From positions 89,712 through 153,711 of IMG/VR virus record IMGVR_UViG_3300046318_000491: a DNA stretch of 64,000 nt. One strand, written 5' to 3'. Made by a program: the position numbers and the translations under genes. The DNA comes from a virus. Positions 41,199-63,640 of this stretch are shown piece after piece. The notes beneath the pieces are model-generated. The model worked only from the letters and a program-made list of their open reading frames with translations. It was not told the origin of the DNA and did no database searches. Numbering within the stretch: the first letter of the stretch is position 1; each line of letters starts with the position of its first letter.

Positions 41199-42091
41199 GA
41201 TTCTACCTTAGCATACAAAGAAGTCAAGTGGTGCATCGACATAGTTGGACGAATTTTTCAAAAATTTGTGGAGGCCGATTTTAAAAAAGGGGGGTCTTCA
41301 GGATGGGAGGAATTTGTTGTATTTGCAAACGGATATGGTATAGTAGGCGTCTACTGCTTTTGGCGTGTGAGTGGGTAGCAGCTATATATCGACCTCTTCG
41401 AAAACGTTTCCTGATTTCGGTCTGAGAGTTGGTCGAATCTTCCTACGAAATCCGTGACGGACTGCCTTGGGTCTTGCCTCTCTTCTCTACCAGCCAGTTC
41501 CCCCCCTCAGCCCTCCAATACAAACATCTGATTACACATCAAAGATTACGACAGCCCTCGACTCCTCTGCTCATGACTTCAAACAAGTAGTCATCTACTT
41601 CATCACAAGTGCTATGCCACTAACATCTAACGAGCATAGAACAACATTCATTCAAAGTAACCCGGATCGAAATCTTCTCAAGAAACTTTCAATGAATGTC
41701 ATCTAACAACGACAGAAAAAATAAATACCTACACCACCCGACCAAATCTCTGACGACATCAAACATCTACACGACTAGCAAGGCTATGCTCATCATTTCC
41801 ACAAGAACTGGGAACAATGCCCATGCTCTCTCTGCTCTGCTCACATACGCCCGCCTAAGCCCGCTACGCTTATGCTCTTATTTATTCAATGAATAGGGGG
41901 TTGAACTGCTATGACTGACCAGCCTGAACTCTCTAGGACTACCCAACGGCAAGCACATACGAGCCAGCAAAGCCCGTGTTAGTCCACGCACGCCCGTGTA
42001 GTCCTAACTCCTCTACAACGCCCACACAAGGCTTACGGCAGGCAAAAGAAAACCCCCACCAGCGAACTGGCAGGGGCTTTCGTTTGAACTG

Positions 42092-42253
42092 TTAGAAGGT
42101 GCGGAAGGTGAAGGTGCGACCGTCTGTCATTAGAGACTTAGTTGCCTCGATGATTTCAATGGCACGCTTGACTGAGTTAGCCTCATAGGTTGGCTGTGAA
42201 GATAGGGTTCCGTCTGCTTCGTAAACGGTGATTTCGATTCCAGTGAAACGCAT
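42092..42253 (-). CDS. Microprotein (53 aa), paralog of 43160-43330
   Basis: Start revised to MRFTGIEI (RBS GAAGGA). Confidence 0.7.
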   Translation of the reverse strand: MRFTGIEITVYEADGTLSSQPTYEANSVKRAIEIIEATKSLMTDGRTFTFRTF

Positions 42254-42463
42254 TTTGTTTTTCCTTCTGTAGCCCTCCACCCCCTTGGCTTCCTGACTAC
42301 ATAAGTAGTCTATCACACCAATACCAAAAAACGCAAATCAAATCCCGTGCCTCACCCCCGTGTCTGACTTTCGACAGAAAAAATAAATACCCCTCGGCGA
42401 GCGCGAAATCCGAACGGCAAAAGAAAAAACCCCCGCCGAAGCGAGGGTCTTTCAGAAATCTAT

Positions 42464-42634
42464 TTAGGAATGGTCTAACTTCCAACCAAGCCAAGTGAAG
42501 CCAACGGCGAGCGCAAACAATAGAAACTCCACAATGGCGGGCGCACCGCCTACGGCATAGCCGAACAGCCAGACAAATCCCAAGCCTACGGCAAGCCCAT
42601 AGGCGACCACAGCGAACTCTCGGTAGGCTTTCAC
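42464..42634 (-). CDS. Two-TM membrane microprotein (56 aa)
   Basis: Read by hand: MKAYREFAVVAYGLAVGLGFVWLFG...; GTGA coupling with the upstream ORF. Confidence 0.6.
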   Translation of the reverse strand: MKAYREFAVVAYGLAVGLGFVWLFGYAVGGAPAIVEFLLFALAVGFTWLGWKLDHS

Positions 42635-42753
42635 TTCTCCGACCGCCTACGAGCCAGATACGCCTCATGCTGGGCATGGCGGAAAGTGTAGAACGCTTTA
42701 TCGCTCAACCACGCCCAAAGGCGATAGACAGCCGTGTGATAAGTCTTACGCAT
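42631..42753 (-). CDS. Microprotein (40 aa)
   Basis: Read by hand: MRKTYHTAVYRLWAWLSDK...; TAATG coupling. Confidence 0.55.
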   Translation of the reverse strand: MRKTYHTAVYRLWAWLSDKAFYTFRHAQHEAYLARRRSEK

Positions 42754-42947
42754 TATGAACCTGCCTTTGCTTGACGCTTTGCCTGACCTGCCAACTTACG
42801 CTTTACATAGCGACTGACTTCGACCTCAACTGGCTTAGGCTTACGGCACTCGCCACAAACCTGCTTTGATGAGTAGTAGTAGCCAACCTCTGTGTGAAAC
42901 TGTTCACCGCAGTTGTAGCAGTGAAGCCAAACCTTGTTGCCTGACAT
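42753..42947 (-). CDS. Zinc-ribbon microprotein
   Basis: CYNC...CGEC with a basic tail; RBS AAGGGG. Confidence 0.7.
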   Translation of the reverse strand: MSGNKVWLHCYNCGEQFHTEVGYYYSSKQVCGECRKPKPVEVEVSRYVKRKLAGQAKRQAKAGS

Positions 42948-43159
42948 CTGAACCCCTTACCCCAATCCCTCTGACTGGATACTCCCAGTCTACTCTAACC
43001 CTCTGACAAAACGCAACACCTCTCCGCGTGTGTCGCCGTGCCCCCGCCCGTGCCAACGCTGACAGAAAAAATAAATACCGCACGCCAGCGAAAAAATCGC
43101 CAGCCAGCGAGCAAAGAAAAAACCCCCTGCCTCTCGGCAAGGGGTTAGTTCGTTTACTT

Positions 43160-43330
43160 CTATCGGTGACCTACAACGCTAAAGGTCATAGTATTACCGC
43201 TACCTGCGATAAGTTCCTCGGTACGTTCGATAATCTCCTGTGCCTTGTCCCACGAGTGGCACTCGTAGACTGGCTCAATGTAGTTTCCGTCTGGCTCTGT
43301 AATCTTGATTACAAGTGAGTTGATAGTCAT
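43160..43330 (-). CDS. Microprotein (56 aa), paralog of 42092-42253
   Basis: Read by hand: MTINSLVIKITEPDGNYIEPVYECHSWDKAQEIIERT...; RBS AAGGGGG. Confidence 0.65.
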   Translation of the reverse strand: MTINSLVIKITEPDGNYIEPVYECHSWDKAQEIIERTEELIAGSGNTMTFSVVGHR

Positions 43331-43342
43331 TCGTGCGCCCCC

Positions 43343-43666
43343 TTACAAGGTCTTTAGGTAGTCGTATTCGGTGGTCTTTAGAGTTGCCTCGTAAGCCTCT
43401 GGGAATAGCGACTTCATTAGTTCACGGTCAAAGTGTGTGTTAGCACCGTTCACAACACGAACGGCAACTACGCCCTCAACAACGCCAGCCTTTGCCTCGC
43501 CTAGAGCCTCACGCAAGATAGCCTCTGCCTTTGACTTTAGGGCCTTAGCCTTTGCCTCTGCCGCTTTTGCTTTGTTGAAAGTGGTGAGAGCCTTGATAGC
43601 CTTTGCTGAAAGTTCTACGCCCTCTACGGTCTTGTTGCTCTTTACTGCTACAACTGTGTTAGCCAT
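43343..43666 (-). CDS. Hypothetical protein, similar to 49179-49559
   Basis: Start revised to MANTVV (RBS AAGGGG). Confidence 0.7.
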   Translation of the reverse strand: MANTVVAVKSNKTVEGVELSAKAIKALTTFNKAKAAEAKAKALKSKAEAILREALGEAKAGVVEGVVAVRVVNGANTHFDRELMKSLFPEAYEATLKTTEYDYLKTL

Positions 43667-43886
43667 TTGGCTACCCCTTATCTTTTCTACCAGCCTTGTT
43701 GCTGATGTATTCAGCATACAGGCATTACTTCCGAAAGTCAAATCCAAATCCACAAATCTTTTCCCGTGTCGTCGCCCGCCGGGTTGTCGGCAGAAAAAAT
43801 AAATACCCATACCCGGTAGCAAAATAAATCCGAACGGCAAAGAAAAAAGGCTGAGCATTTCTGCCCAGCCTCTCGTCTTGAAACTT

Positions 43887-44234
43887 CTACGCTAACGCCC
43901 TCAAGTTCGCACCCGCACTCGCAAGGTTGCGAATCATTCGAGCGTTGTCCTCGGTGAGTCCTAGAGTGTCGCCGTCTTCGTCTGTCCCACCCGTAAACAC
44001 TACGCTGCCCTGAATGTCGTAGTTCCCACCAACGGTAGCAAAGAAAACAGTTCCTATTGCGTTTGGTTCTGGTTCGTTCCTCAAGAGAAACTCCTCGTTC
44101 ACCCACATAATCAAGTTCTCGTTGATGTCGATAGCCTCGATCCAGCCGTCTACGCCTGCTTGTAGTTCCTCTAGAGAAACTCCAGTCTCCGTGACATTGT
44201 AGTTTGCGTCTACTACTAGAGCCAACTTTTCCAT
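43887..44234 (-). CDS. DUF3846-like protein
   Basis: LEELQ..VDGWIE...MWVNEE...N.IG...I.G.VVFTG; start revised. Confidence 0.7.
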   Translation of the reverse strand: MEKLALVVDANYNVTETGVSLEELQAGVDGWIEAIDINENLIMWVNEEFLLRNEPEPNAIGTVFFATVGGNYDIQGSVVFTGGTDEDGDTLGLTEDNARMIRNLASAGANLRALA

Positions 44235-44508
44235 TTGAATCCCCAATCCATAAACCACTCTGGCTTATGTTCTAAGTTTACCAATACCCACTGACATTTT
44301 CAACTTCTCACCGTGCGTGTTTCTTCGTTCGTTCGTTGTTGCGGTATACGCAGAAAAAATAAATACCCACCGCACGCACCAAAATTATTCGAGCGAGCAA
44401 CAAAAAACCCGATAGCACAATCACTATCGGGTCTCTCGGAGAAAGAAACGAGGGGGCGTTTCCGTTATCTCTGTCGCTACCAAAGGGGGATAAGGTAGCG
44501 AGTTCTAT

Positions 44509-44736
44509 TTAGTTGTTGGGGTCGTAGTCGGCGTAGTAGTCGTCTCGCAAGTCTTCCTTGCTAGGCACTTCGACTTCTAGGACTGAACGGCACTTAGGAC
44601 ATTCGGCTGTCACAGTAGTTCCGTAGTCGTCTGTCTGACCGTCTAGTTCCATTTCTTCGTCGCAGTGTGAGCAGAAAAACCAAGCGGTGTAATCGGTAGA
44701 GTCAATCCCTGACCCTTTCATTGAAAACCCAGGCAT
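44509..44736 (-). CDS. Zinc-ribbon microprotein
   Basis: CSHC...CPKC. Confidence 0.7.
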   Translation of the reverse strand: MPGFSMKGSGIDSTDYTAWFFCSHCDEEMELDGQTDDYGTTVTAECPKCRSVLEVEVPSKEDLRDDYYADYDPNN

Positions 44737-44888
44737 TAGTGGTTCATCTCAAATCCTGCTGAATACTCGACGCCCGCTGGAGTTGGGTCGTAGCAATCCT
44801 GACATACGCCACCTGCTACATAGTATTCGGCAACCATTGGGTTGCTCTCTGTAATCTTGCTCTCGCAGTTTGGACACTTCTCTGACAT
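44736..44888 (-). CDS. Zinc-ribbon microprotein (50 aa)
   Basis: Read by hand: MSEKCPNC...CQDC...; RBS AAGGGG. Confidence 0.65.
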   Translation of the reverse strand: MSEKCPNCESKITESNPMVAEYYVAGGVCQDCYDPTPAGVEYSAGFEMNH

Positions 44889-45119
44889 CTGAAACCCCTT
44901 GTCTGCCAACCCCTTGTTGGCTACAAGAACTACATTACAGGATACCTACGACAAACGCAAATCGAAACGCCGAAAACTTTTCCGTGTCGCCAACCCCGCG
45001 AGCGCGTTCACAGAAAAAATAAATACCCCTCGGCAGACGAGAAACTCGGCGAGCAAGGCAAAAAGAAAACCCCCGCATTTCTGCGAGGGTTGTCTTGAAA
45101 CTGTATCTGATTTGGCGTA

Positions 45120-45344
45120 TTACTCGCCTACGATTCTGTCTATCAAGCGTGAGACCTGCGGTGAGAATGTAAGCATTAGGGCAATGATTACGCCTAGCCC
45201 CAAGCCATTCTGGAAAACTTCTTCACTTGAAACGGTAGGCTCTGCCCCTGCGATTACCAACCATAGGTAGGCAAGCGTGTAAACCCCTGCGACTACTGGA
45301 ATAGAGATAATCCCTACAACTGCTCTGCGAATGTAAAACTTCAT
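45120..45344 (-). CDS. Two-TM membrane microprotein
   Basis: Hydrophobic helices; own promoter and RBS. Confidence 0.7.
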   Translation of the reverse strand: MKFYIRRAVVGIISIPVVAGVYTLAYLWLVIAGAEPTVSSEEVFQNGLGLGVIIALMLTFSPQVSRLIDRIVGE

Positions 45345-45422
45345 TTTGAATCCCCTTTTCTAGTTAGGCTTTCTAACTACTTACAGTTTACCCTACAACT
45401 TTTTGAATGTCAAGCATTTCTT

Positions 45423-45587
45423 TTAGTAGTTCTCATTGACATACTCAACCAGTTCATCTTGCGACTTACCAGCACGAATCAAGTCCTTGACTTCTTCGTC
45501 TTCGGCAAGCAACTCAAACATAACCGTAGTCTCACCTGACAAGACAATCAACTTCTCGAACAACGATAGTTCTCTATTTAGAATCAT
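45423..45587 (-). CDS. Microprotein (54 aa)
   Basis: Start revised to MILNREL (RBS AAAGGGG). Confidence 0.65.
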   Translation of the reverse strand: MILNRELSLFEKLIVLSGETTVMFELLAEDEEVKDLIRAGKSQDELVEYVNENY

Positions 45588-45774
45588 TTGAATCCCCTTT
45601 GTTTGGATAGTCATACTTTATCACCAAGCACCGACATTTTCAACTTCCAACGAACCCGTGTCATCTCGCTGTCGCCGGCAGTCAGAAAAAATAAATACCC
45701 TCGGATTTCGAGAAAAAGATTTCGCGCAAACGCAAAAAAAAACGCCTGCCTTTCGGCAAGCGCTTCTTTTTAGT

Positions 45775-45903
45775 TCAACTACATAACTGTCCAGCAAACC
45801 AACTATCAAACTCGCTCTCGCAGTCCTCGCATAAAGGGTGAACGGTTGTTATGTCTTCGACTTCTATCGCCGTGTCACATTGGTAACACTCTGTCTTAGC
45901 CAT
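45775..45903 (-). CDS. Zinc-ribbon microprotein (42 aa)
   Basis: Read by hand: MAKTECYQC...LCEDC...; TAATG coupling. Confidence 0.6.
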   Translation of the reverse strand: MAKTECYQCDTAIEVEDITTVHPLCEDCESEFDSWFAGQLCS

Positions 45904-46151
45904 TAGTCAATACCCCAACAATCGGCACACTTCGGAACAGTAAACCCTGAACCATTTGCCTTGTTGTTCTCGTAGTGGAGGTGGAGGCTCTCGTCTAGCA
46001 CAATCGTCTTATCACATTGACGGCACGACACTTCGTAAGTGTTCTCAGTCATCATTCGTGAACGGTTATACATCTTCGAGATTTCGTAGTTGATTTCGTC
46101 ATCTGACATTTCGACGGCAGACTTACTCAAGTTCGTAGTCCGTGTCATCAA
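45903..46151 (-). CDS. Zinc-ribbon small protein
   Basis: CRQC...CADC; start uncertain. Confidence 0.6.
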   Translation of the reverse strand: MMTRTTNLSKSAVEMSDDEINYEISKMYNRSRMMTENTYEVSCRQCDKTIVLDESLHLHYENNKANGSGFTVPKCADCWGID

Positions 46152-46404
46152 GCCAAGTTTCTAGACGGTGTCCGTCGATTACTGCCCACGCTGGAGCGGC
46201 AGTCAATCCCTTGTAACCCACGCCATCTGGCATACTAATCAAACGATTCGGCTCGCCATTGTTGTAATGCTCAATCGCTTCAACGCAAACTGGAACCATT
46301 GACAACGGCACAGGTGGAAAAAAGTTGCCACGCAAGTGCCAAGTGATTTGTTCTTCTAGTGGAATACCAGTTTCGGCGATTCCTTCGGCATACATTCTAC
46401 CCAT
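46123..46404 (-). CDS. Hypothetical protein
   Basis: 93 aa with RBS AGGGG and a promoter. Confidence 0.7.
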   Translation of the reverse strand: MGRMYAEGIAETGIPLEEQITWHLRGNFFPPVPLSMVPVCVEAIEHYNNGEPNRLISMPDGVGYKGLTAAPAWAVIDGHRLETWLDDTDYELE

Positions 46405-46677
46405 TTACTTCCCCTAATCTTTCGGTGTAGCCCTATTGCTACATCTGTAATCTTACTCTACTTCCAACGACTTCGCAACTCTCGTTCGTTGTGTGTCCCG
46501 CAGCTCGCAGAAAAAATAAATACCGCCTACACAAACAAAAATCGAAAAGCAAAACGGTAAAAGAAAAAGTGGTATCAGACGGGGGGTCCAATACCACTTC
46601 TCTTTGAGGCGAGCGAAAGGGGGATAACTCTCGCCTCCATCAGTTAGGGAGGTTACTCGACCTAACTAACTTCTACT

Positions 46678-47013
46678 CTACACTAAAGTTTTTGAAAACT
46701 CGTCGTGTTCAACATCTTGATACGTGTAAACGCCTGTGTCTGCGTTTACGAATACAGTTGGAGCATCTGCCCACTCCGAGCCAGTCACCTTGCCTGTGTA
46801 AATCCCGAATGACAGTTCGCCATCATAGTTGCCAATCTTTGCGAACTCGTAGAAAATCTGTGCGGTGAGATAACTAGGGTCGCCAATACGCCCTGAACGC
46901 TCTAGCACGCTACGAACAGCAAGAATGTTGTCATCGCCTGACCAATGTCCATAAAATACAACTGGAATCTCGAACTGCTCTGACGAGACTTCGATAAATG
47001 CTCTGTTTCCCAT
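46678..47013 (-). CDS. Hypothetical protein
   Basis: Start revised to MGNRAFI; Y.HW.G and D..YLTA motifs. Confidence 0.7.
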   Translation of the reverse strand: MGNRAFIEVSSEQFEIPVVFYGHWSGDDNILAVRSVLERSGRIGDPSYLTAQIFYEFAKIGNYDGELSFGIYTGKVTGSEWADAPTVFVNADTGVYTYQDVEHDEFSKTLV

Positions 47014-47226
47014 TTGAATCCCCTTATCTGTAACCAATCTGGCTACATACATAGATTACCATGCTCATGCGAGAAAGTCAAACCTCGCTCACTTCAAACG
47101 AATCGTGTGTTCGCACGTGCGGCAGCGCGGCAGAAAAAATAAATACCACCGGCAACGACGCAAATTGTTTCGCAAGGCATAAAAAAACTCCCCGCCTTTC
47201 AGCGAGGAGTTCTTTCGTTTGAAGTT

Positions 47227-47619
47227 CTATACTAACTCTGGCTCTGGCTCAAAGTCACGAACCAAAACATTTCGAGTAAATACGCTCGAACCCCAGTTCA
47301 AGTCGTGTCCTACTGCCTCTGCCTCAAGTTCAACGGAAGTTCCTGAACGCTCACCGTTATCCCAATCACGCACACGCAATACGCCCTGAACCATAATGCG
47401 GTCGCCCTTGTTCACCGAACCAGAAACATTTATAGCAAGTTGCTTGAAAGCGGTAATCGTATACCAGTTGGTCTCGCCATCTACCCACTTGTCTAATGCT
47501 CTGTCGAATCGGCGGTTGCTACTTGCTAGTCGGAATGATGTAATCGCCAAGCCCTCGGCTGTGACGATGTGTCGTGGTGTAGTTGCTACTAGTCCAGCAA
47601 CGCTAATGGTCTCTGCCAT
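47227..47619 (-). CDS. ssb: Single-stranded DNA-binding protein (actinobacterial type, short C-terminus)
   Basis: OB-fold motifs SFRLAS..R.FD....WVDGETNWY...LA.NV..S..KGDR..V.G.L...E.EA..VG.DL. Confidence 0.9.
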   Translation of the reverse strand: MAETISVAGLVATTPRHIVTAEGLAITSFRLASSNRRFDRALDKWVDGETNWYTITAFKQLAINVSGSVNKGDRIMVQGVLRVRDWDNGERSGTSVELEAEAVGHDLNWGSSVFTRNVLVRDFEPEPELV

Positions 47620-47971
47620 TTTTCCCTTTCAGTAGATTACTGAATTTCATCTACATAAGAATCTTACCAGACTGCTACGACAAATACAACTTACAAACAA
47701 CTCCGCGTCTGCTCGCTCGACGGAAGTTGTCAGAAAAAATAAATACCCTCTTGCGGTAAAAAAATAATCCCCAGAAAAAACTAAAAGACCAGAAAAGCAC
47801 AATGCGTTATCTGGTCTTGAAGTTTGACCCCAGGGTCTGTGTTTAGCGACACTGCTGTCGGTTTCCCTAACATAGTAGCGAAGTTTTTAGGCGAAGAAAT
47901 AGAGTCTAGAATACTCAATCACCGCAACCCACTCACCGACCTCCGTGGTTCAATGTGTTAGGCAAGTCTAT

Positions 47972-48091
47972 TTAGTTTTCGTCGTCGTGAGAGAAATACT
48001 TATTGGAACACTCAACGCACATACCAAGTTCTTCGGCATGAACGTCGGCTTCAATCATCTCGCCACATACGTCGCAAGGCAACTTACTCAT
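47972..48091 (-). CDS. Zinc-ribbon microprotein (39 aa)
   Basis: Read by hand: MSKLPCDVC...MCVEC... Confidence 0.6.
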   Translation of the reverse strand: MSKLPCDVCGEMIEADVHAEELGMCVECSNKYFSHDDEN

Positions 48092-48308
48092 CTTCGCTGA
48101 ACTCATCTAGAGCGTCGCGTGCCACGCTCCAAGTCGCCCCCATGTCGCGGAGCAAATCCTTTTCTTCCAAGTAGTGTTCCTGAATGAACTCAATGGCAAG
48201 TTCCAATGCGTTCACCGCACTCTCGGTAACTACCTCTAGTTCAATCTCGGTGTCTACTATCGAACTGATAGCGGCACACAAGTTCAGTTCGTCCTGACGC
48301 TTGCTCAT
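48084..48308 (-). CDS. Acidic hypothetical protein
   Basis: 74 aa with promoter and RBS. Confidence 0.65.
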   Translation of the reverse strand: MSKRQDELNLCAAISSIVDTEIELEVVTESAVNALELAIEFIQEHYLEEKDLLRDMGATWSVARDALDEFSEDE

Positions 48309-48473
48309 TCTCTTACCCCTTTCTTAGGTAATCTCACTTTACCATAACCCTCGGACAAAATACAAAACATTCTTCCCGTGTTTTCCGCGAGCGCGAATGT
48401 TGTCAGAAAAAATAAATACGACCTACGGCAAAAAAAACGCCGACCAAAAAAGTCGGCGTTCGTTTTTTGTTTG

Positions 48474-48770
48474 TTAGTGCGAAATCAAATCTGCGTATTC
48501 ATCTACACGCTTCAACAAATCTTCTGCGGTGTTTGGAATGTCCAACCCAGCCAGTCGCATGCTTGTCTTCATGACCAAATCTGCGGTGCTAAGTCCGAGA
48601 GCGAGAGCAAGATTCTCAATCACTTCTGATGAGGCTTCTTTTTGCCCTCGTTCGACTTCTGACAAATACCCCAGAGCGATAAACCCTGATGTGCTCAAAT
48701 CTCGTAGCGTCTTCTTTTTGGCGGTGCGTTGCTCACGCAAGACCTCGCCCAATGCTTCACGAAATAACAT
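48474..48770 (-). CDS. XRE-family HTH regulator, ClgR-like
   Basis: LFREALGEVLR..R....TLRDLS....IALGYLSEVERGQKEASSE closely matches actinobacterial ClgR-type regulators. Confidence 0.85.
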   Translation of the reverse strand: MLFREALGEVLREQRTAKKKTLRDLSTSGFIALGYLSEVERGQKEASSEVIENLALALGLSTADLVMKTSMRLAGLDIPNTAEDLLKRVDEYADLISH

Positions 48771-48986
48771 TTACTTCCCTCCCTTGCGGTGCTTGTCCAA
48801 CGGCAGACCTGCTTTGCGTAGTTGCGACTTCAAGTTCAACACGCCACGAGCGTTAGATGGCGTGCTGGCAGAGTAGAAACGCTCGCCAGTCGGTGCTGTC
48901 CAGCATAGGTGGTCGTTCTTTGTGCGCTCAACAGTCCAGCCAAGTTTCTCAGCCAAGACCCTAAGTTGTTTGATGTCTTTTCTCAT
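48771..48986 (-). CDS. HicA-like small protein
   Basis: L..LAEKLGW.VERT.N.H.....P.G......TPS pattern; start revised. Confidence 0.6.
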   Translation of the reverse strand: MRKDIKQLRVLAEKLGWTVERTKNDHLCWTAPTGERFYSASTPSNARGVLNLKSQLRKAGLPLDKHRKGGK

Positions 48987-49178
48987 CATTCCCCTTTTCG
49001 TGATGTATCTCATCACTAAGACCATTCTACTCTAGACCCCTGACATTTTGGAATACCCACGCCAAAAGTTTTCGTGTCTGGTCGAACCCTCCAGAAAAAA
49101 TAAATACCTGCCCTGCCAAAAAAATCGGGGCAAAAAAAAAACGCTGACGATTTCTCGCCAGCGTTCTTTTCGGTGTTT

Positions 49179-49559
49179 TTAGAGAATGTCAATCCTCAAA
49201 GTTGATTCCCCTGCGCCACGCTCGATGGTGTAGCGAGGCTTGATGATGTCGTAAATCTCTGGCATCTCCAACTTCAAAGCCTCCCAGTCGAATGACGCTG
49301 ATGACTGGACAACCTTGACGCTAATCAGACGCTTGCCCTTTGCGTCTGTGCCAATCAGGGTGGTGGCAGTCTTGCCCACGAAATCTAAAATAGCGTCTCG
49401 TGCTGTATCCCCAAGTTCCTTGGACTGCTTGGCAATGTTGCGTGCCTCGCGAAGCGTGTTCACTTCGGTCTGAATCTTGCGAGGTAGGACAAGCAAGTTG
49501 TCCTTGGTGGTGCTGGTAATGCTGGTGGTCGCCTTAGCAACCTTGGTGGTGTTAGCCAT
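49179..49559 (-). CDS. Hypothetical protein, similar to 43343-43666
   Basis: Start revised to MANTTK (RBS AGGAGG). Confidence 0.7.
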   Translation of the reverse strand: MANTTKVAKATTSITSTTKDNLLVLPRKIQTEVNTLREARNIAKQSKELGDTARDAILDFVGKTATTLIGTDAKGKRLISVKVVQSSASFDWEALKLEMPEIYDIIKPRYTIERGAGESTLRIDIL

Positions 49560-49721
49560 TTGATTTCCTCCTGTGTTTGTTATCAGTGGGTCTAACAAAA
49601 TCTACTTTACCAGAGTCCTCCGACATTTTACAAATCCAAGTGCGTGTTTCGTGGATTATTTTTTTCGGGGTCGGAAAGTTCCAGAAAAAATAAATACCCT
49701 CCGTCGAAAGAAAAACGAGGC

Positions 49722-50579
49722 TTACGCCTCGCTCTCCTCGTCCAATGTCGGGAACAACTTTTGACCCGTGTTCTCGTCCACGACCCAGAATGAATCTGAA
49801 TCCTCTGCGGTTAGTTCGTCCAACTTGTCTTGGGCAACTTCCCACGCACCCTCCGCTGAAGTTGCTCGCACAATGTATCGGCGTTCAACGACAACAACGA
49901 AGTCCGTTTCCTGACGAGGGCAGTCCTCGTAAAAGTCTTCCTCGTCTCCGTTTTCGCAAGCCCAGCAGGCTCGACCCAATGCGTCATAGTCGGCGTGGCT
50001 CTGCGGAATGTCCCACTCCCTCGTCATGATTAGCGACTTTGTAGGCACGCCGTTCTCGTCTACATCATCTCCGTCTGACGAAGTGAACTCCGCACCCCAG
50101 CCCTGTTCCTCCTCGCAAGAAAAGTCGAACGAAAGTTCTGGGTGCTGTCGAACGATAGCCGTGAATACCTGCTCTGGGATTCCCCATGCCGTTTCAAACG
50201 AGTAGCCCAAGTAAGCCGCTTTATCGTCCGTCATGTCCGTCAAGTTCACGCTACCAGCGTCCCACTTCACGCCCCAGTTGCTGACATTCCAGTCATACCA
50301 GCCGTCTGATTCGTGTTTCATAGCAATAGCCATGCGGTCTTCCATGCTCATCTCGGCGTATCCGTCTGGCTTGTAATCGCTCGCCCCGAAGTAGCGTGGC
50401 TTGTTCTCTGGTTCAATGAAGTTCCAGAACGATAGCGGTGAGGCGTTCTCGTCCTTGTATTCAAGCACGCCGTCCTCGCTGATTCCGCTAGGGGCAATCT
50501 TGCTCGCCTTATCACGAAACGCAATCAGGTCTTTAGCCGTGCCGTTTACATTCATGTTGTTGTAGACCCAGTTAGGCAT
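49722..50579 (-). CDS. DUF1281/YubB-like ferredoxin-fold protein
   Basis: MPNWVYN, WYDWN..NWGVKWD and FETAW..P motifs. Confidence 0.75.
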   Translation of the reverse strand: MPNWVYNNMNVNGTAKDLIAFRDKASKIAPSGISEDGVLEYKDENASPLSFWNFIEPENKPRYFGASDYKPDGYAEMSMEDRMAIAMKHESDGWYDWNVSNWGVKWDAGSVNLTDMTDDKAAYLGYSFETAWGIPEQVFTAIVRQHPELSFDFSCEEEQGWGAEFTSSDGDDVDENGVPTKSLIMTREWDIPQSHADYDALGRACWACENGDEEDFYEDCPRQETDFVVVVERRYIVRATSAEGAWEVAQDKLDELTAEDSDSFWVVDENTGQKLFPTLDEESEA

Positions 50580-50581
50580 TT

Positions 50582-50875
50582 CTACCACGCACCCTTGTCT
50601 ACATCAAGCCTGTGAGCGTCAATCATTTCATTCACAGTTTCACCTGCGAACATCTTGGCTACCGCCAATCGTGTTGCGAGTTCTGGCTCGTTCAACTTCT
50701 GTGCCAACTTCTCTGCCAACGCCAGCACCTTATACATGGTTGGGTCGCAGTAGCCATCTCGGCAGTAGTCCTCTACCAGCACGCCAATCGTGGCAAGTGC
50801 CATGCCAGCAATCTCGTGGTCGTCTAGTTCCATGTGGTCTAGTTCGTCCATGTTTCCTGAACAGTTATTACACAT
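50582..50875 (-). CDS. Hypothetical protein
   Basis: Start revised to MCNNCSG (RBS AAAGGGG). Confidence 0.65.
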   Translation of the reverse strand: MCNNCSGNMDELDHMELDDHEIAGMALATIGVLVEDYCRDGYCDPTMYKVLALAEKLAQKLNEPELATRLAVAKMFAGETVNEMIDAHRLDVDKGAW

Positions 50876-51199
50876 TTGAAATCCCCTTTCTTGGAATCGT
50901 ATTAGAACTTTACCATAGACTTCCGACAAATACAAACACCATTCGTTAGAAGTTTCTCTTTCTTTTTTGCGACTCGGAACTGACAGAAAAAATAAATACC
51001 ACCCCGCTGAAAAAAAATCCCGCTGAACTTTCCACGAGACCAATCCGTGTTCGTTGGAAGTGGAATGGCATTTTGTAATCGCACGAGCAAACAAAAAACC
51101 CCCAACAATCCGTGAGGACTATCGGGGGCTAAGTGGTGTCCACTAGCGAACCAACGAAAGGACGAACAAACGCAATCCGCTAGTGGAACTCTGCTTCCC

Positions 51200-52954
51200 C
51201 TAAACGCTCGCTTTCATGAGTGCGTCCGTTGCGCTCTTGCCAATCGCAAACGCAATCTCCTTGGTCTCCAGTCCGTCTAAGACCACGCCGTTTCCACCGA
51301 CCAACTGCGCACCTAAACCACGCCCACATTCCTTTGGCGTAATCCAGAGAACTGCCACGCCGTTTTCCTTACACAAGCGAGCCGTCTCTTTCGCTCGGTT
51401 AGTTTCCTCGCCTGTGTAATGTCCGTCTGAAACGACAACCAACAAACGCACGCCGTTTCCGTTGGTCAAGTCAAGTGCGCCGTCAAGTGCTTTGAACGCC
51501 TTGCCAAAAAGTTCCGTTCCGTCTGGTGCGGTATAGACCGAAACCTTTTCCAATCGCTGACCGACCTTGAGAGTCGGGAATACGCCAGAGCCATAGTAGA
51601 CCATAGCGGTCTTGGCTTGAACTCGGCGACCTGCTTCGCCAAGAACCCAAGCCGTAGTTGCCATGCTCTCCATAGCCGAACCCATAGAACCGCTAATGTC
51701 CACCATGATTCCGATAGAGAGTGTCGGGTCGTCTGTGTGCTTGCGTGTCTTGTGCTTCCATGCTGGATTCAAGTCTCGCACGCCCTTGGCTTTCAACGCT
51801 TCGTTCTGAACAAGCACTCGTGCCTTTAGGCGACCAACTGGCTCGTGAGACTTGATTACAGTTTCCGAGCGTTCACGATACTTTGCCTTTTCCAACATCT
51901 GACCAATCTTGACTGCGCTTGCTCGCTCGTGTCCAGTTGGGTTGCGCTGTTCTTGTAGGCGTGAACGAGAACCAGAACCCTCTGACCCAGTTGCCTTGGC
52001 AAAAACTTCTTTGGCTTCCTGCTTCGATTCGCTCTGACGCTTCGATTCGCTCTGACGCTCTTTGGCTTCCTGCTTCCAATCCTCTTGGGTCTGCTGGTCT
52101 GACAAGTCCATAGACGCTGACATGGCTGTCTCACCTGCGTCTGATTCCATAGCGTCCATGAGTTCCTTTAGAAACTCTGGCACGCCACCCTGACCTGATT
52201 CGCCCTCTGGGTCTGCCTCTTTCAAAAGGTCGTTCCACTTTTCGGCGAGCGCAATCCCACGAGCAATCTCGCTCGTGTGTAGCGACTGGAACTCCACCCA
52301 GATAGAACGCAAGTTGTTGAACAAGTCCATGCCAATCACTTCGACAACCTTGTCGAAAGTTGATTTCACATCTGACAACTTGACAACTCCTGCGTCCACT
52401 CGTGCCAACGCTAATGCTGATACATGAGCGCACGCACGAATCTCTGTAAGATTCGCTATGGCTTCCTCGTCTACTCCCTGTAATGCGAGACCAAGTGCTG
52501 ACGAGCGCAAGAACAACTGATTCTCTGGCATTTGAATAACGCCCTTGCGTTCGATTCGTGATTCGTCTAGCAACTGAAAAGTGTTGAATACCTTTTCGTC
52601 CATAGACTTTAGGGCTGTCTTATCCCAGAGTGAGTAGCGAGCGTGAAGTGCCTCGTGATAAATCACGCCAGTTGGCTCTGCCCAATCGTATTGGGTTGTT
52701 CGCTCTGTAAAGTCGCCAACCATTTTCGGGGTCGTTGCTTTACCAAACGCCTGTGGAATGTTGATTTCGATTTCGGCTGTGTCTGTAAGGAAACAAGCAA
52801 GTGCCACGCCCATACCTGCGTCCTCACCTGCGTAAACTGCCAAGTCGTTTCGACCTGACCATGCGTTTACAACTGTGCCAATCTCTGCGCAAGTCTTTAG
52901 CCACTCTGGGGTAGTTGCGCTGGTGCGTGTTGCTAGTCGTGAAAAGTGAGACAT
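51200..52954 (-). CDS. CobT-like metallopeptidase-motif + VWA domain protein
   Basis: HEALH, E.RIE, MIDAS DISGSM and VVSDG. Confidence 0.85.
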   Translation of the reverse strand: MSHFSRLATRTSATTPEWLKTCAEIGTVVNAWSGRNDLAVYAGEDAGMGVALACFLTDTAEIEINIPQAFGKATTPKMVGDFTERTTQYDWAEPTGVIYHEALHARYSLWDKTALKSMDEKVFNTFQLLDESRIERKGVIQMPENQLFLRSSALGLALQGVDEEAIANLTEIRACAHVSALALARVDAGVVKLSDVKSTFDKVVEVIGMDLFNNLRSIWVEFQSLHTSEIARGIALAEKWNDLLKEADPEGESGQGGVPEFLKELMDAMESDAGETAMSASMDLSDQQTQEDWKQEAKERQSESKRQSESKQEAKEVFAKATGSEGSGSRSRLQEQRNPTGHERASAVKIGQMLEKAKYRERSETVIKSHEPVGRLKARVLVQNEALKAKGVRDLNPAWKHKTRKHTDDPTLSIGIMVDISGSMGSAMESMATTAWVLGEAGRRVQAKTAMVYYGSGVFPTLKVGQRLEKVSVYTAPDGTELFGKAFKALDGALDLTNGNGVRLLVVVSDGHYTGEETNRAKETARLCKENGVAVLWITPKECGRGLGAQLVGGNGVVLDGLETKEIAFAIGKSATDALMKASV

Positions 52955-53060
52955 GATTTCGTCCTTTCGTTGTCTCTTGCTTTGTTGCTAAATCCAACCT
53001 TACCAGAGTTGGTAGGGGAACGCAAGTTCATTCCCCTACCTTTTCTAGTAGAACGGATTA

Positions 53061-54089
53061 CTAGATTTTCGCTGGCATTACTGCTTCGCCGAAAACTCGT
53101 GTGAATACATCTGCCACGACTGACCTGTCAATCTCTGGTGCGCTGGCAAGTAGATTCTGAATCGCCCACTTTGAACCAAACAAGTTGGTCAAGTCTCGGA
53201 ACGCAAGCAACTCTCGGAACTGTGGAGACCATGAAGTCTCACCGTTCGACTGCTTCTTGGCAAGATTCTGTGAAGCCGAAACTGCTGTCGCTGGAACGCC
53301 CAACTTCTTAGCCAATGCCCAGTCTGTTGTCATTTCAACCTGAACGCTGAATCGTGATAGCAACGCTTCTGAAAGTCGAACTCCAGGTGCGTTAGGGTTG
53401 GTCGCACCAATGACGAAAAATCCGTCCTTTGCCTTGACTGTGCCTCGCTCTGGATTCTGGGTAATGGTGATTTCCTTGCGTCCGTCCATGAGACCATAAA
53501 CGGCAGACAAGACCTTTGGGTCAATGAGACCAATCTCGTCAATCAAAAGAACCTTGCCCTCCTCTGCTGACTTGACCAATGCGCCGTCCACCCATTCAAA
53601 AGAACCACTTGGGGTCTGAACATAGCCACCAATGAAGTCTGAAAGTTCGGTGTCGCCTGAACCAAGAACTGTGTAAAGGTCGTCTGGGAACGCACCCTCA
53701 ACGCACGCTGTCTTACCAGTTCCAGGTGCGCCATAGAGTAGAACATACTGACCTGCGCCACGAGCCTTGCGTAGAACCTCAATGTCTGTGTGGTCGCCCC
53801 AAGGACGAGCGTAGTAGTCCTGACCATTTGGTCGAACATACTTCTCTGCCCCTGCTAATGCTTCCACATTCACATTCCCTCTAGTAGACTTTGGCTTCGG
53901 AGTGCCAGTTCCGATTTTAGCACGAACATTTGCTCGTGCGCTGGCTGGCATAAGTGAGTCCAAACCTGCTGGAACTGCGCTTGGCTTTTCGTGCTGAATC
54001 GCAACGCCATAAATCAGACTTGATAGGTCTGGGTATAGCGTGTCAATAGTTTCCTCTGGTGCTGTTGCTGGTGCTGTAATGGTAGTCAT
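53061..54089 (-). CDS. MoxR/CbbQ/NorQ-type AAA+ ATPase
   Basis: GAPGTGKT, LLIDE, GATNP and ALLSRF; adjacent to the VWA gene. Confidence 0.9.
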   Translation of the reverse strand: MTTITAPATAPEETIDTLYPDLSSLIYGVAIQHEKPSAVPAGLDSLMPASARANVRAKIGTGTPKPKSTRGNVNVEALAGAEKYVRPNGQDYYARPWGDHTDIEVLRKARGAGQYVLLYGAPGTGKTACVEGAFPDDLYTVLGSGDTELSDFIGGYVQTPSGSFEWVDGALVKSAEEGKVLLIDEIGLIDPKVLSAVYGLMDGRKEITITQNPERGTVKAKDGFFVIGATNPNAPGVRLSEALLSRFSVQVEMTTDWALAKKLGVPATAVSASQNLAKKQSNGETSWSPQFRELLAFRDLTNLFGSKWAIQNLLASAPEIDRSVVADVFTRVFGEAVMPAKI

Positions 54090-54113
54090 GATTTTTCCGT
54101 CCTTTTTCTCTGA

Positions 54114-54650
54114 CTAAACTGTGGCTGGTGCTGGAGTGATAAACAACTTCTCTGGGAATCCAAGGGCAACTCGTGTCTTTTGGATTCGGCGTAGTGCGCT
54201 CGCTGGTGCTTTGTAATCACGAACATCTGTGAAATCTACATCTGTCATTTCAAAAACGATAGGGCGATTTCCACGCAAGGTCTTTAGACCATACATCATT
54301 TGACGCTTTAGAGTTCGCTCTACCTGCTCTGCCATGTTCAACGCCTTGTCCTCTGGTGCGAGAGTAGCCATTTCCTTGTCAATGCGAATACGATTCATGC
54401 GCCACTGCTTTCGTGGAGACCACTCTGAAACTGTGCGAGAAACAATCGCCATGTCTACTGGCTCGCCCTTTTCGTTAGTTCCCTGTGGGGTAATAAGAAT
54501 CTGGGTTGTCTGGTCTCCCTTGTCATTTGGAAACTCTAGGTAGATTCCCCTGCCCATAATACGAGGCTTATTTGAAGTCTCGCCTAGTGCTACTGCTTCT
54601 GCGACTTCTGGGGCTAGTTCCCCAAAAGTTCCCAATGAATCTGGATTCAT
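54114..54650 (-). CDS. Hypothetical protein
   Basis: Start revised to MNPDSLG (RBS GAAAGGA). Confidence 0.7.
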   Translation of the reverse strand: MNPDSLGTFGELAPEVAEAVALGETSNKPRIMGRGIYLEFPNDKGDQTTQILITPQGTNEKGEPVDMAIVSRTVSEWSPRKQWRMNRIRIDKEMATLAPEDKALNMAEQVERTLKRQMMYGLKTLRGNRPIVFEMTDVDFTDVRDYKAPASALRRIQKTRVALGFPEKLFITPAPATV

Positions 54651-54753
54651 GATTCGTCCTTTCAATCTGTGTCGCTGGATTTTTCCAACAAGTTCAACTT
54701 ACCATAGTTCGTTGGAAGTTGTCAAGTTCATTCCAAACTATTTTTTGGCGTGT

Positions 54754-55287
54754 CTAAAAGTGGAAGTCCACTGGGATTAGAAACTGGTTGTCTGGGCGTG
54801 TGGCTACTCGCGTTGTGAAGTAGCGCAAGTTTCCTGTCCAGTTCTCTATGTCATAGATACCTGTGTCGCAAGTCCATTCATCATCTAGGATTTGCGCCAA
54901 CTTCTTGGTAGCCCACAAGTCCATGTTGAGACCACTTGCGTAAGGGTCATAAGAATAGGTAGTTAGGTCAATCGCCTTTGACTTGTATTCACGAATGGAA
55001 GCCATTCGTTCCTCTAGGTAGCGAGTGATTACTTCCTCTGCTCGTGCTGGGTCATCTGAATAGCGCAAGTGGTTGGGATTAGTATCTGGGGTCTTGAACT
55101 CCCCATTCTCATTCACATCACCAAAGACTGCGCCAGACCAACGTCCTGCGAAGTTTAGGGAGTCTGAGTTGCTGGCGTTATGCCAATCAGACCAGCGAGG
55201 CTCGCCATCGCTGAAGTGGCTTTCGACATTACTAAACGCTTCCTCTGGGGTCTCTGCCTCCACGAGGATAATCTGGCATACGTGCAT
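54754..55287 (-). CDS. Hypothetical phage protein
   Basis: WSDW..GRWSG...VDFHF pattern; promoter and RBS present. Confidence 0.7.
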   Translation of the reverse strand: MHVCQIILVEAETPEEAFSNVESHFSDGEPRWSDWHNASNSDSLNFAGRWSGAVFGDVNENGEFKTPDTNPNHLRYSDDPARAEEVITRYLEERMASIREYKSKAIDLTTYSYDPYASGLNMDLWATKKLAQILDDEWTCDTGIYDIENWTGNLRYFTTRVATRPDNQFLIPVDFHF

Positions 55288-55393
55288 TTTTCGTCCTTTC
55301 AGTTATAAAACTTACTTGAACTTTACCAGATACCTCTGACATTTTCAAATCGCCGCGCTCGCGGTATTCGTGTCAGAAAAAATAAATACCTGA

Positions 55394-55690
55394 CTACTCG
55401 TCGAATTCCAACGGGTCATACTCTTCCGTTGAATCGAAGATGTCCGATAGAGGTGTAACTGCTGAGTCTGGTTCTAATACATTGCTGGCGCATTCGGTGC
55501 ACACCAACCACTGGGTCTCATCGTCTAGCGCTACAGCAAATGGGAAGTAGGCACCCGCTATGTGTCCGACGTCTTCAAAGCATGCAGCACATTCAGCACC
55601 GTCGAGGTCTTCAATCTCTAACAGTCCTGCTTGTATACCGTGGTCGACATCGGTGTTGTTTTCCATCACGTGGAGTTCTACGTTTCTCAT
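55394..55690 (-). CDS. Acidic zinc-finger protein (leaderless)
   Basis: CAAC...CTEC; -10 TAACAT lies 6 nt upstream of the ATG. Confidence 0.65.
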   Translation of the reverse strand: MRNVELHVMENNTDVDHGIQAGLLEIEDLDGAECAACFEDVGHIAGAYFPFAVALDDETQWLVCTECASNVLEPDSAVTPLSDIFDSTEEYDPLEFDE

Positions 55691-55770
55691 AGGGTTATGT
55701 TACCCCGTTCTCCAGATGGTGATTCGGGAGAAGCGCTCGCCGCAGTCAAGAGCACGCCGTTCGTTAGAAG

Positions 55771-57405: not shown

Positions 57406-57426
57406 ATGTCAACCATACCCTAAGGA

Positions 57427-58290: not shown

Positions 58291-58302
58291 GTGGTGAGTC
58301 TA

Positions 58303-58719: not shown

Positions 58720-58907
58720 CCGTTATTCGTTCCTTCTTGATCCGGGCCGTTACTTTCAACGAACTCTTGGATCTGATGGTACAGGTTTTGAGCTTCTTGC
58801 GCAAGGGTAGTTATTCGGATGTGCTCGATGCGTGTTGATGCATTCTCGATATCCGCTTTGAGGTTTTCGTACAACATCCAGGCCGCTTGCTTAATGTCTT
58901 CGTGCAT
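58716..58907 (-). CDS. Hypothetical protein
   Basis: 63 aa, coupled. Confidence 0.6.
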   Translation of the reverse strand: MHEDIKQAAWMLYENLKADIENASTRIEHIRITTLAQEAQNLYHQIQEFVESNGPDQEGTNNG

Positions 58908-58909
58908 TG

Positions 58910-63175: not shown

Positions 63176-63640
63176 CTAATCATCATTGCGAACCCACCAC
63201 CCGCGTGAGTCTCGCTTTAACTTCTTTGAGTATTCTCGAAGCTCTTCAATTCTACCTACATGATGGATACGGTCATCAATCTCTAATGCCAACGCTAGAA
63301 TCTCGTTCTTGTCTACTGCATAATGCTTAGTGTTTCCAAAGATGTAGTGCTTCTTGATGTACCCCATGTTTGCGTAATAAGTTATCATCCGTGTCCCCAC
63401 TCCTAAAAGTGCCGATGCTTCTTTAGGAAGAATGATGTTATCTGGATATCCCCTAAGTATCAGTTCGAACTTGGTACATCCTGCTACTTCTCTAACTTCA
63501 TCGAGTTCAACTAAGTAGTTTCTCTTGTGCCCACTTGCACTTGGATGCTTCTTAATCCAACCATTCTTAATCCAATACCCAATCATTGGAGTCGTTACAT
63601 GTGAAAGCTTTGCTGCTTCTGCTGGAGTAATTAGTGGCAC
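63176..63640 (-). CDS. Tandem MerR/excisionase-like HTH protein
   Basis: Two repeats: ITPAEAAKL..V....I.YW...G and ILPKEASALLGV....I.YY...G. Confidence 0.75.
   Translation of the reverse strand: MPLITPAEAAKLSHVTTPMIGYWIKNGWIKKHPSASGHKRNYLVELDEVREVAGCTKFELILRGYPDNIILPKEASALLGVGTRMITYYANMGYIKKHYIFGNTKHYAVDKNEILALALEIDDRIHHVGRIEELREYSKKLKRDSRGWWVRNDD

Follow-up and report, generated by a model that had tools for sequence, protein, structure and literature searches.

The 17-base T-rich box GGTATTTATTTTTTCTG, repeated through a gene array of an uncultured freshwater actinobacterial phage, appears to be the conserved element at the centre of a composite intergenic module that has both a cis-regulatory and an evolutionary (crossover) role, a reading to which we give slightly better than an even chance. 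The repeat has a regular layout and lineage-specific variants. New here are the quantised distance from the box to the -10 element, the inversion of the box in place and a 504-bp cassette indel that runs exactly from box to box.

New anti-host genes accumulate in the early regions of large phages. To our knowledge, the turnover of such genes is poorly understood outside the T4-type phages. In the present array, a 15-17-bp element readable from sequence alone marks each cassette, is helix-phased and is the crossover point of one cassette indel. It is thus a testable handle on the joint switching of putative early promoters and on cassette exchange in abundant uncultured freshwater actinophages, and its 'dialects', together with a relative that has no box, are natural controls for finding the factor involved.

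Layout of the array

The window analysed is a 64-kb stretch of DNA, the final part of a complete virus record of 153,711 bp. A pattern search of the window returned 15 minus-strand copies of the box, 14 of them exact, compared with no match in 100 dinucleotide shuffles. These counts and coordinates, as well as all 14 inter-box spacings, are as an earlier note on this DNA had given them. A scan of the whole 153.7-kb genome found no copy outside the array or on the opposite strand, and all 15 boxes are confined to a single 14-kb array (Table 1). The one variant, at 48404, reads CGTATTTATTTTTTCTG.

The anatomy proposed in the earlier note also holds: a unit consists of a terminator, the box, a spacer, a sigmaA-type promoter, an AAGGGG-type RBS and ORFs. 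We count 1-4 mostly small genes per promoter. A terminator with a hairpin and a T-run lies upstream of 13 boxes, the exceptions being those at 55374 and 41713. The -35 and -10 elements are found downstream of the box in 15/15 units (the site of unit 15 is weak), at the end of a spacer of 25-51 nt from box to -35, and ACACG or CACGG is present in 11/15 spacers. The intergenic module is composed of the terminator, its T-run, 10 GC-rich bp, the box, a spacer of quantised length and the promoter. The promoters of different units are only loosely alike, and within a genome, the intergenic regions cease to resemble one another past the 3' end of the box. A unit length near 650 bp, as claimed previously, is found in the phage of the window (664 +/- 70 bp for 12 units) and does not extend to its relatives (369-1366 bp).

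Family assignment is absent for most of the cargo genes. The 584-aa partner of the MoxR-type ATPase in unit 1 is labelled VWA-like here; its DSL-LC01 homologue is annotated 'cobalamin biosynthesis protein'.

Table 1. Boxes, promoters, terminators and genes discussed in the text, in window coordinates. The last column gives the distance from box start to -10 start in nt.
Feature	Position	Strand	Description	Distance
T-box 1	55374..55390	minus	exact; directly after stop codon of ORF 55394-55690, without terminator	
T-box 2	50984..51000	minus	exact	
T-box 3	49682..49698	minus	exact	
T-box 4	49092..49108	minus	exact	
T-box 5	48404..48420	minus	first base C, not G	
T-box 6	47731..47747	minus	exact	
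T-box 7	47131..47147	minus	exact	
T-box 8	46508..46524	minus	exact	
T-box 9	45683..45699	minus	exact	
T-box 10	45011..45027	minus	exact	
T-box 11	44351..44367	minus	exact	
T-box 12	43791..43807	minus	exact	
T-box 13	43063..43079	minus	exact	
T-box 14	42375..42391	minus	exact	
T-box 15	41713..41729	minus	exact; array end; without upstream terminator, downstream promoter weak	
Promoter, unit 1	55320..55348	minus	TTGAAA-17-TAAAGT with TG and TGTCAG	65
Promoter, unit 2	50907..50935	minus	TTGTAT-17-TAAAGT with TGTCGG	88
Promoter, unit 3	49604..49633	minus	TTGTAA-18-TAAAGT	89
Promoter, unit 4	49024..49052	minus	TCCAAA-17-TAGAAT	79
Promoter, unit 5	48336..48365	minus	TTGTAT-18-TAAAGT	79
Promoter, unit 6	47661..47689	minus	TTGTAT-17-TAAGAT	81
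Promoter, unit 7	47053..47081	minus	TTGACT-17-TAATCT	89
Promoter, unit 8	46450..46478	minus	TTGCGA-17-TAAGAT	69
Promoter, unit 9	45615..45643	minus	TTGAAA-17-TAAAGT with TGTCGGTG	79
Promoter, unit 10	44932..44960	minus	TTGCGT-17-TAATGT	90
Promoter, unit 11	44275..44303	minus	TTGAAA-17-TAAACT	87
Promoter, unit 12	43713..43741	minus	TTGACT-17-TATGCT	89
Promoter, unit 13	42987..43016	minus	TTGCGT-18-TAGACT	87
Promoter, unit 14	42307..42336	minus	TTGCGT-18-TAGACT	79
Weak promoter-like site, unit 15	41633..41660	minus	TTACTT-16-TATGCT; by eye, low confidence	91
Terminator	51097..51130	minus	after VWA gene, upstream of box 2	
Terminator	48435..48461	minus	upstream of box 5	
Terminator	45068..45091	minus	upstream of box 10	
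Terminator	43845..43874	minus	upstream of box 12	
Terminator	43121..43146	minus	upstream of box 13	
Terminator	42048..42081	minus	end of unit 14	
Unit 1 operon		minus	behind T-box 1: 177-aa and 178-aa ORFs, MoxR AAA, VWA	
MoxR-type AAA ATPase	53061-54089	minus	unit 1; within 51200..54089	
VWA-like partner of MoxR	51200-52954	minus	unit 1; 584 aa	
SSB	47227..47619	minus	130 aa; cargo	
DUF3846 protein	43887..44234	minus	115 aa; cargo	
HTH_3 (XRE-type) protein	48474..48770	minus	98 aa; homologues in every compared relative, including box-less G004	
HTH protein	39893-40444		homologue also in box-less G004	
HTH protein	60118-60387		homologue also in box-less G004	
MerR/HTH_17 protein	63176..63640	minus	154 aa	

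Box variants in related phages

Relatives were taken from IMG/VR, and they share the cassette layout of the window's phage. The boxes are identical within each genome and different between lineages, the variants being GTATTTA-T6-CT, -GTC, GTATTCA-T6-ATC, GTATTCG-T6, GTATCCAC-T6 and GGCATTTTTCATTTT; the T6 run is kept in all of them. For example, there are 14 copies of TGTATTTATTTTTTGTC in G005, 21 of GTATTCATTTTTTATC in G006, 17 of GTATCCACTTTTTT in L247, 9 of GTATTCGTTTTTTC in L078 and 8 of GGCATTTTTCATTTT in L071. G001, at about 75% DNA identity to the window's phage, has 21 direct copies and one inverted copy. Because its 15-nt core is the same as that of the window's phage and the flanks on both sides of the box are variable, the exact box sequence is, judging from this comparison, under strong selection. 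On the other hand, the close relative G004 has homologous cassettes and promoters of the same kind with no box, so that the architecture does not depend on it.

Spacing and orientation of the box

Over 68 units from 8 phages, the distance from the end of the T-run to the -10 peaks at about 45, 55, 65, 75 and 84 bp. The vector strength of this phasing is 0.59 at a period of 10-10.5 bp, and it is attained in 0/20,000 nulls with a +/-5 bp jitter. Spacer lengths of orthologous cassettes differ mostly by about 0, 10, 20 or 30 bp. It follows from the quantised distance that the box keeps to a single face of the helix with respect to the promoter, its centre being near -64, -74, -84, -94 or -103. The box can also be inverted in place: in L059, three units have an inverted box between an unchanged terminator and promoter. 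In G001, one inverted box follows a terminator that is unchanged, but downstream of it there is no clear promoter. Inverted boxes precede co-directional genes, and the three in L059 have a common phase of their own, shifted by about 4 bp.

We read the box as a helix-phased upstream promoter element and probably the site of a lineage-specific protein. In the mechanism we propose, a sequence-specific protein, different in each phage lineage, would bind the box and either touch RNA polymerase or bend the DNA towards it, and the cassette promoters would all be switched together.

The promoter phasing is also compatible with curvature, and a structural upstream element could work with no dedicated protein, either by bending the DNA with phased A/T-tracts or by making a distal, UP-like contact with RNA polymerase alpha. 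Identity within a genome would then be a by-product of concerted evolution, with frequent in-box crossovers homogenising the box. Such crossovers do occur (see below), the T6 run is present in every variant, and, with a second T-rich block at -18 to -12 and the T-run of the terminator near -34, the T-tracts are roughly 20 bp (about two helical turns) apart, an arrangement that could curve DNA without any protein. The flanking base at -1 is also fixed per lineage, being G in the window's phage and T in G001. However, curvature does not require 15-17 exact bases, while the GTAT part and the 3-4 bases preceding the T-run are invariant over 15-21 copies per genome in two lineages that are 25% diverged. 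Ordinary gene conversion should homogenise the flanks as well, which is not the case, and a symmetric bend would have no need of the 4-bp phase shift of inverted boxes. We consider a purely structural element possible but unlikely.

The earlier note also compared the box with stoperators, where a repressor on each site would halt read-through between cassettes. The likeness is that of short asymmetric sites (13-17 bp) in many copies (15-30 repeats) whose motif varies between related phages, and in Cluster A mycobacteriophages this variation tracks the cognate repressor (PMC6550527, PMC9283540). Stoperators, however, occur throughout the genome within transcription units, mostly share one orientation and halt elongation (PMC6550527, PMC9283540), whereas the box is restricted to one array, sits just after strong intrinsic terminators and ahead of promoters with which it is phased, and tolerates inversion, against the predominantly single orientation of stoperators (PMC6550527). 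Neither an integrase nor a repressor was identified, and the phage looks lytic. A roadblock of this type is very unlikely. The stoperator-like part of the earlier operator proposal thus falls away, and its protein-binding part is supported, indirectly, because the box is phased with the promoter, varies by lineage and tolerates inversion.

Candidate binding proteins

The recognisable DNA-binding genes either have a homologue in box-less G004 or are very divergent. Four HTH proteins had been put forward as binders, and three of them also have homologues in G004 (Table 1). The MerR/HTH_17 protein is the sole recognisable DNA-binding protein with homologues in the box-bearing G005 and G006 and no match found in G004, which leaves it as a weak candidate for the box binder. 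We infer the protein binding, its phage-encoded source, the sign of the regulation, the early timing of the genes and the enzyme of recombination.

Cassette turnover

Cassette maps of five related arrays differ in order and content through gains, losses, splits, merges, relocations and duplications, in agreement with the recombination-shuffled cassette bank suggested earlier. The best resolved case is that of G003 and G005, whose flanks are 91-96% identical. G005 has two boxes around a 504-bp cassette and G003 has a single box, the left flank of which corresponds to the left flank of the left G005 box (68/70) and the right flank to the right flank of the right one (69/73). Both breakpoints of this indel are inside the box at nucleotide resolution, while the cassette indels between the window's phage and G001 are resolved to the intergenic module only. 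We take the window's box to act as crossover site in a cassette shuffling like that of the PeSL (promoter-early stem-loop) cassettes. Box-by-box recombination would delete, insert, duplicate and relocate whole cassettes, and crossovers would fall in the box because it is the only exact repeat common to all cassettes.

The precise indel, the relocated and duplicated cassettes, the boxes inverted in place and the identical sites, as in lox/FRT-type systems, might also be explained by a dedicated core site of site-specific recombination, an integron-like platform with an enzyme of an unrecognised family, to which the nearby promoter is secondary. Integrons are marked by an IntI-type tyrosine recombinase and by attC, the imperfect inverted repeat at the end of promoterless cassettes, which takes up its fold in single-stranded form. 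Here, the complete 153.7-kb genome gave no match to tyrosine or serine recombinases, RecT, ERF or RecA, which extends to these families genome-wide the absence of a recombinase reported for the window. PF00589 had no match in the complete genome, with the control matching in 14/14 genomes; a direct reading of the box gave no dyad symmetry or attC-like fold, nor does the adjoining sequence fold consistently; and each cassette is equipped with a promoter and a terminator of its own. Moreover, slippage or general recombination can delete between 16-17-bp direct repeats about 500 bp apart, and helical phasing with the promoter would be left unexplained. We find such a site very unlikely indeed, and the description of the array as integron-like is not sustained.

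Hardly credible is a reading of the box as a promoter for a phage RNA polymerase, a signal for RNA processing or a U-tract belonging to a second terminator. Its richness in T recalls a terminator tail, and T7-type promoters are typically invariant, lineage-specific boxes of 17-23 bp. But the box works, or at any rate is maintained, in either orientation with unchanged flanks, which argues against a promoter or RNA signal. It is not followed by any conserved sequence, the region directly upstream has no consistent hairpin (mean z -0.45 and -0.63), and Rfam gave no matches. A search for single-subunit RNA polymerase (PF00940) had no match in the genome, with a control that matched nowhere either.

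Our proposal can be carried further, to a private protein of each lineage that reads its own T-box, acts from a class-I-like position to regulate all early cassette promoters jointly, and also promotes cassette exchange at the box. We think this combination rather improbable. If true, it would amount to a gene-cassette platform for early or host-takeover genes that is independent of recombinase families, and the box dialects would isolate lineages.

Comparison with known systems

In our reading, the box is neither an integron site nor a stoperator, and it differs from T7-type promoters in that its orientation towards the driven gene is not fixed. Class I CRP activator sites are located at -61.5, -71.5, -82.5 and -92.5. 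The box is similar to these, to phased curved DNA and to UP elements in keeping to one helix face at integral turns, about -60 to -100, and in being T/A-rich; unlike class I sites, it is asymmetric, exact and lineage-varying, and its activator is only putative.

The fitting analogue of the box cassettes is the PeSL of T4-type phages (Arbiol et al. 2010, PMC2839356; Comeau et al. 2014, PMC4122927), not the integron. In each case, a composite intergenic module combines a stem-loop terminator, an AT-rich upstream region and a promoter of sigma70 type, and the modules cluster in a hyperplastic region made up of small ORFan genes. The cassette indels or replacements that distinguish related phages have their ends within the motif in either system, here at nucleotide resolution for G003 and G005 and at cassette resolution for the window's phage and G001. 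The differences are that the present actinophage group and its host are unrelated to the T4-type, and that the shared part here is a short, exact, lineage-specific T-rich box of 15-17 bp that lies 45-84 bp upstream of the -10, in helical phase with it.

The phage and its array

The complete virus record is 153,711 bp long, the window being its final 64 kb. The 127-nt terminal repeat of the record probably stems from overlap in the assembly. No match to the window sequence was found among GenBank phages by megablast. The closest deposited genome is that of Actinomycetia phage DSL-LC01, a lake metagenome assembly (major capsid protein 68% and large terminase TerL 72% identical), followed by large Microbacterium, Arthrobacter and Gordonia phages. 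With respect to transcription the array precedes terL, and from this position and by analogy its genes would be early genes.

Coordinates of the features in the window and in the compared relatives
Sequence	Position (strand)	Feature
Window	1-37 kb (-)	Tape measure, major head protein, portal, large terminase (PHROG and Pfam matches)
Window	19995-24863 (-)	1622-aa ORF; PHROG matches labelled portal, head maturation protease and virion structural protein
Window	25782-32068 (-)	953-aa and 1117-aa head-region ORFs; no PHROG family
Window	32707-34440 (-)	577-aa portal, separate from the 1622-aa ORF
Window	36582-38789 (-)	735-aa catalase-peroxidase (Pfam peroxidase, E 6e-68), immediately upstream of terL
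Window	39893-40444	Sigma70_r4-like protein
Window	41713-55390 (-)	Array of box-headed units
Window	42987-55348 (-)	Seven promoters with a strict fit to TGTC(A/G)G-N10-TAnnnT
Window	44509-44736	75-aa zinc ribbon
Window	45643-62497	ACTTCNAACGA/TCGTTNGAAGT sites, continuing at genome 1900-5800 across the circular junction
Window	46123-46404	93-aa ORF
Window	48404	Box with C replacing the first G
Window	48474-49025 (-)	84-aa HicA-like ORF and 98-aa HTH_3 protein
Window	56069-57405 and 60845-63164 (-)	Two tandem 2OG-Fe(II) oxygenases, 445-aa HAD-hydrolase/nucleotidyltransferase fusion, GT61-type glycosyltransferase; may be a DNA or surface-sugar modification set
Window	63176-63640	MerR/HTH_17 protein
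G001	14908-15294	Extra box-bounded cassette
G004	50000-66000	Spacers rich in GCGCTCGCGG, GATCGATC and GACACGCTCG
G005	113438 and 113942	Boxes enclosing a 504-bp cassette
DSL-LC01 (L046)	18000-47000	About 32 copies of CTAAAGATGTTATAAT
L078	1-80	Uninterrupted T-run

Anatomy of the box and the unit

The 15 minus-strand copies of the 17-bp box GGTATTTATTTTTTCTG were recovered exactly where the earlier note had placed them, 14 of them exact, and every one of its 14 spacings was correct. In the full-genome scan that it had proposed, all 15 copies fall inside the window, with none on the other strand or elsewhere in the 153,711 bp, and the pattern had no match in 100 dinucleotide shuffles. When the minus strand is read, a GC-rich hairpin with a T-run is found upstream of 13 of the 15 boxes, and another T-rich block lies between -18 and -12 relative to the box; then come about 10 GC-rich bases and the box. 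The spacer after the box (25-51 nt) is unrelated in sequence between units, and ACACG or CACGG occurs in it in 11 of the 15 window units. The promoter has a -35 element of TTGAAA, TTGACT or TTGCGT, a distance of 16-18 nt and a TAnnnT element often preceded by TG, and the unit ends with an AAGGGG-type ribosome-binding site and 1-4 ORFs, mostly small. An Rfam search gave no match. A hairpin immediately 5' of the box is not consistently present, which rules out the box as the tail of a second terminator. Another motif, ACTTCNAACGA with its complement TCGTTNGAAGT, occurs 19 times in both orientations. The sites are frequently found where an ORF ends, immediately ahead of a terminator, and again directly upstream of the -35 element; the motif is also present in the relatives G001 and G004.

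Family matches in the cargo were to XRE-type HTH, SSB, DUF3846, zinc ribbons and a MoxR AAA ATPase with a large partner protein, and the remaining array cargo had no family match. An 84-aa ORF with a faint HicA-like match (E 0.02) lies directly before a 98-aa HTH_3 protein in the same cassette; they may be a toxin-antitoxin-like pair. Besides the seven array promoters that fit TGTC(A/G)G-N10-TAnnnT strictly, several others fit it loosely, the -35 hexamer also being present, and the few other matches in the genome fall in coding sequence and look like chance. These array promoters resemble the actinobacterial PafBC (RecA-NDp) promoter type, and PafBC is reported to act via such a motif (PMC6789036). 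If they are of this type, the cassettes would be driven by a host DNA-damage activator.

Box variants in the relatives

Exact-box scans of IMG/VR, the JGI metagenomes and the GTDB genomes gave single chance matches only. Relatives were found with TerL and a 584-aa protein as queries, which returned many IMG/VR contigs with the same layout, and their boxes are uniform within a genome and different between lineages.

Boxes of the relatives and box types
Genome or type	Copies	Box
G001 (~75% DNA identity to the window)	21 direct + 1 inverted	TGTATTTATTTTTTCT
G005 (complete, 152 kb)	14	TGTATTTATTTTTTGTC
G006	21	GTATTCATTTTTTATC
L247	17	GTATCCACTTTTTT
L078	9	GTATTCGTTTTTTC
L071	8	GGCATTTTTCATTTT
Type II		GTATTCA
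Type III		GTATTCG
Type IV		GTATCCAC

GTAT and a run of six T are constant across the boxes, and each lineage has its own 3' tail and its own 3-4 bases between GTAT and the T-run. A 15-nt core is identical in the 36 direct boxes of the window phage and G001 despite variable flanks on both sides and a genome divergence of about 25%, which argues for selection on the exact sequence. The relative G004 (L254/L255; TerL 89% identical) has homologous cassettes and the same kind of promoters without the box; its contig also shows A-runs just upstream of the -35 element. The box is also absent from DSL-LC01, whose syntenic region has instead a nearly invariant extended -10 promoter, CTAAAGATGTTATAAT, set within an inverted repeat GATTC...GAATC; this repeat has the appearance of an operator that overlaps each promoter. 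In some relatives (L078, L083 and L084), array intergenic regions contain T-runs of about 35-55 nt without interruption.

Helical phasing and orientation

For each box the best downstream -10 element was picked by a scorer without periodic bias, and the distance to it was counted from the T-run end. Over 68 units from 8 phages, the distances cluster at about 45, 54-56, 63-65, 73-76 and 84, and the gaps are empty. The vector strength has its maximum of 0.59 at a period of 10-10.5 bp, a value that none of 20,000 nulls with +/-5 bp jitter reached. Within the window, the distance from box start to -10 is 65, 69, 79 (four units), 81 or 87-91 (eight units), and, between phages, orthologous cassettes have spacers whose lengths are mostly about 0, 10, 20 or 30 bp apart. 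Therefore, the box is on one helix face relative to the promoter, centred near -64, -74, -84, -94 or -103. Class I activator sites and phased upstream bends have a similar geometry. ACACGG was also tried as a phased element and rejected, since it is present in only 23 of the 68 units and without phase. The near-constant unit length of the earlier note, considered here as a lattice, is not kept in the relatives.

In the relative L059 the box is reverse-complemented in three units while the terminator, ACACGG motifs, promoter and genes keep their direction, and G001 has one inverted box; the terminator and ACACGG motifs ahead of it are unchanged, and no clear promoter follows. The three inverted L059 boxes share a phase of their own (57.5, 77.5 and 99.5 from centre to -10), about 4 bp off that of the direct boxes. 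Inversion in place would not be tolerated by a directional promoter, by a signal at the RNA level or by a strand-specific nick site; a protein-binding or bending site can tolerate it. In its phasing, exactness, lineage-specific variants and tolerance of inversion, the box has the marks of a cis-regulatory site for a putative sequence-specific factor. Chief among the rivals is a curved or UP-like element that needs no protein and whose uniformity is maintained by crossovers; it explains T-tracts about two turns apart but leaves the invariant GTAT part unexplained, and we consider it rather unlikely.

As for the factor that would read such a cis-regulatory site, three of the four HTH proteins proposed earlier as binders also have homologues in the box-less G004. 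The Sigma70_r4-like protein is unlikely as a specificity factor, since every relative, G004 among them, has it at 68-78% identity. We searched by phyletic pattern for ORFs in the box-bearing G001, G005 and G006 without a match in G004, the single box-less genome. This weak test gave, among others, the MerR/HTH_17 protein, a weak candidate that is only 28-37% identical in G005 and G006, the 75-aa zinc ribbon and the 93-aa ORF, which by eye look acidic and non-DNA-binding, and the 953-aa and 1117-aa head-region proteins. The first gene after the first box was rejected as binder: the 177-aa family of the window phage and the 172-aa family of G005 and L247 are both acidic (pI 4.3-4.8) and mutually unrelated.

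Cassette exchange at the box

Cassette maps of five arrays have a backbone order in common, yet cassettes are gained, lost, split in two and merged; families F2, F14 and F26 are relocated and F1, F2 and F27 duplicated. Within one genome, intergenic similarity covers 60-80 nt upstream of the box and ends at the box 3' edge. Between G003 and G005, whose flanks are 91-96% identical, the cassette enclosed by two boxes in G005 corresponds to a single box in G003. The left flank of this box is that of the left G005 box (68/70) and the right flank is that of the right box (69/73), with the cross-comparisons at background (24/70 and 23/73); the crossover therefore lies within the 16-17-nt box. The extra cassettes that distinguish the window phage and G001 are also box-bounded, for example one between the F14 and F13 cassettes of G001, at a resolution limited by the hypervariable spacers. 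As the box-to-box indel and the shuffled maps demonstrate, cassettes are exchanged at the same box element. The absence of a recombinase, noted earlier for the window, extends to the complete genome, where tyrosine and serine recombinases, RecT, ERF and RecA are all missing; deletion of cassettes would need no more than host recombination, or slippage of replication from one direct repeat to the next. The cassette bank and the operator lattice, between which the earlier note had left the choice, are not alternatives: the box would be both a cis-regulatory site and the site of cassette exchange.

Comparison with known systems

What is new is the quantised, helix-phased spacing in eight phages, the inversion in place, the box-less relative and the crossover resolved to the nucleotide within the box. 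The shuffling in the proposed cassette bank is borne out by the maps and the box-to-box indel, but the integron likeness is not: integrons have an integrase, attC-type structure and promoterless cassettes, and the array has none of these. The suggested likeness to stoperators (PMC6550527, PMC9283540) fails as well, as the box differs from them in position, distribution and orientation. Among known systems, the PeSL cassette of T4-type phages (PMC2839356, PMC4122927) comes closest; compared with it, the box is short, exact, lineage-private, separate from the promoter and helix-phased with it.
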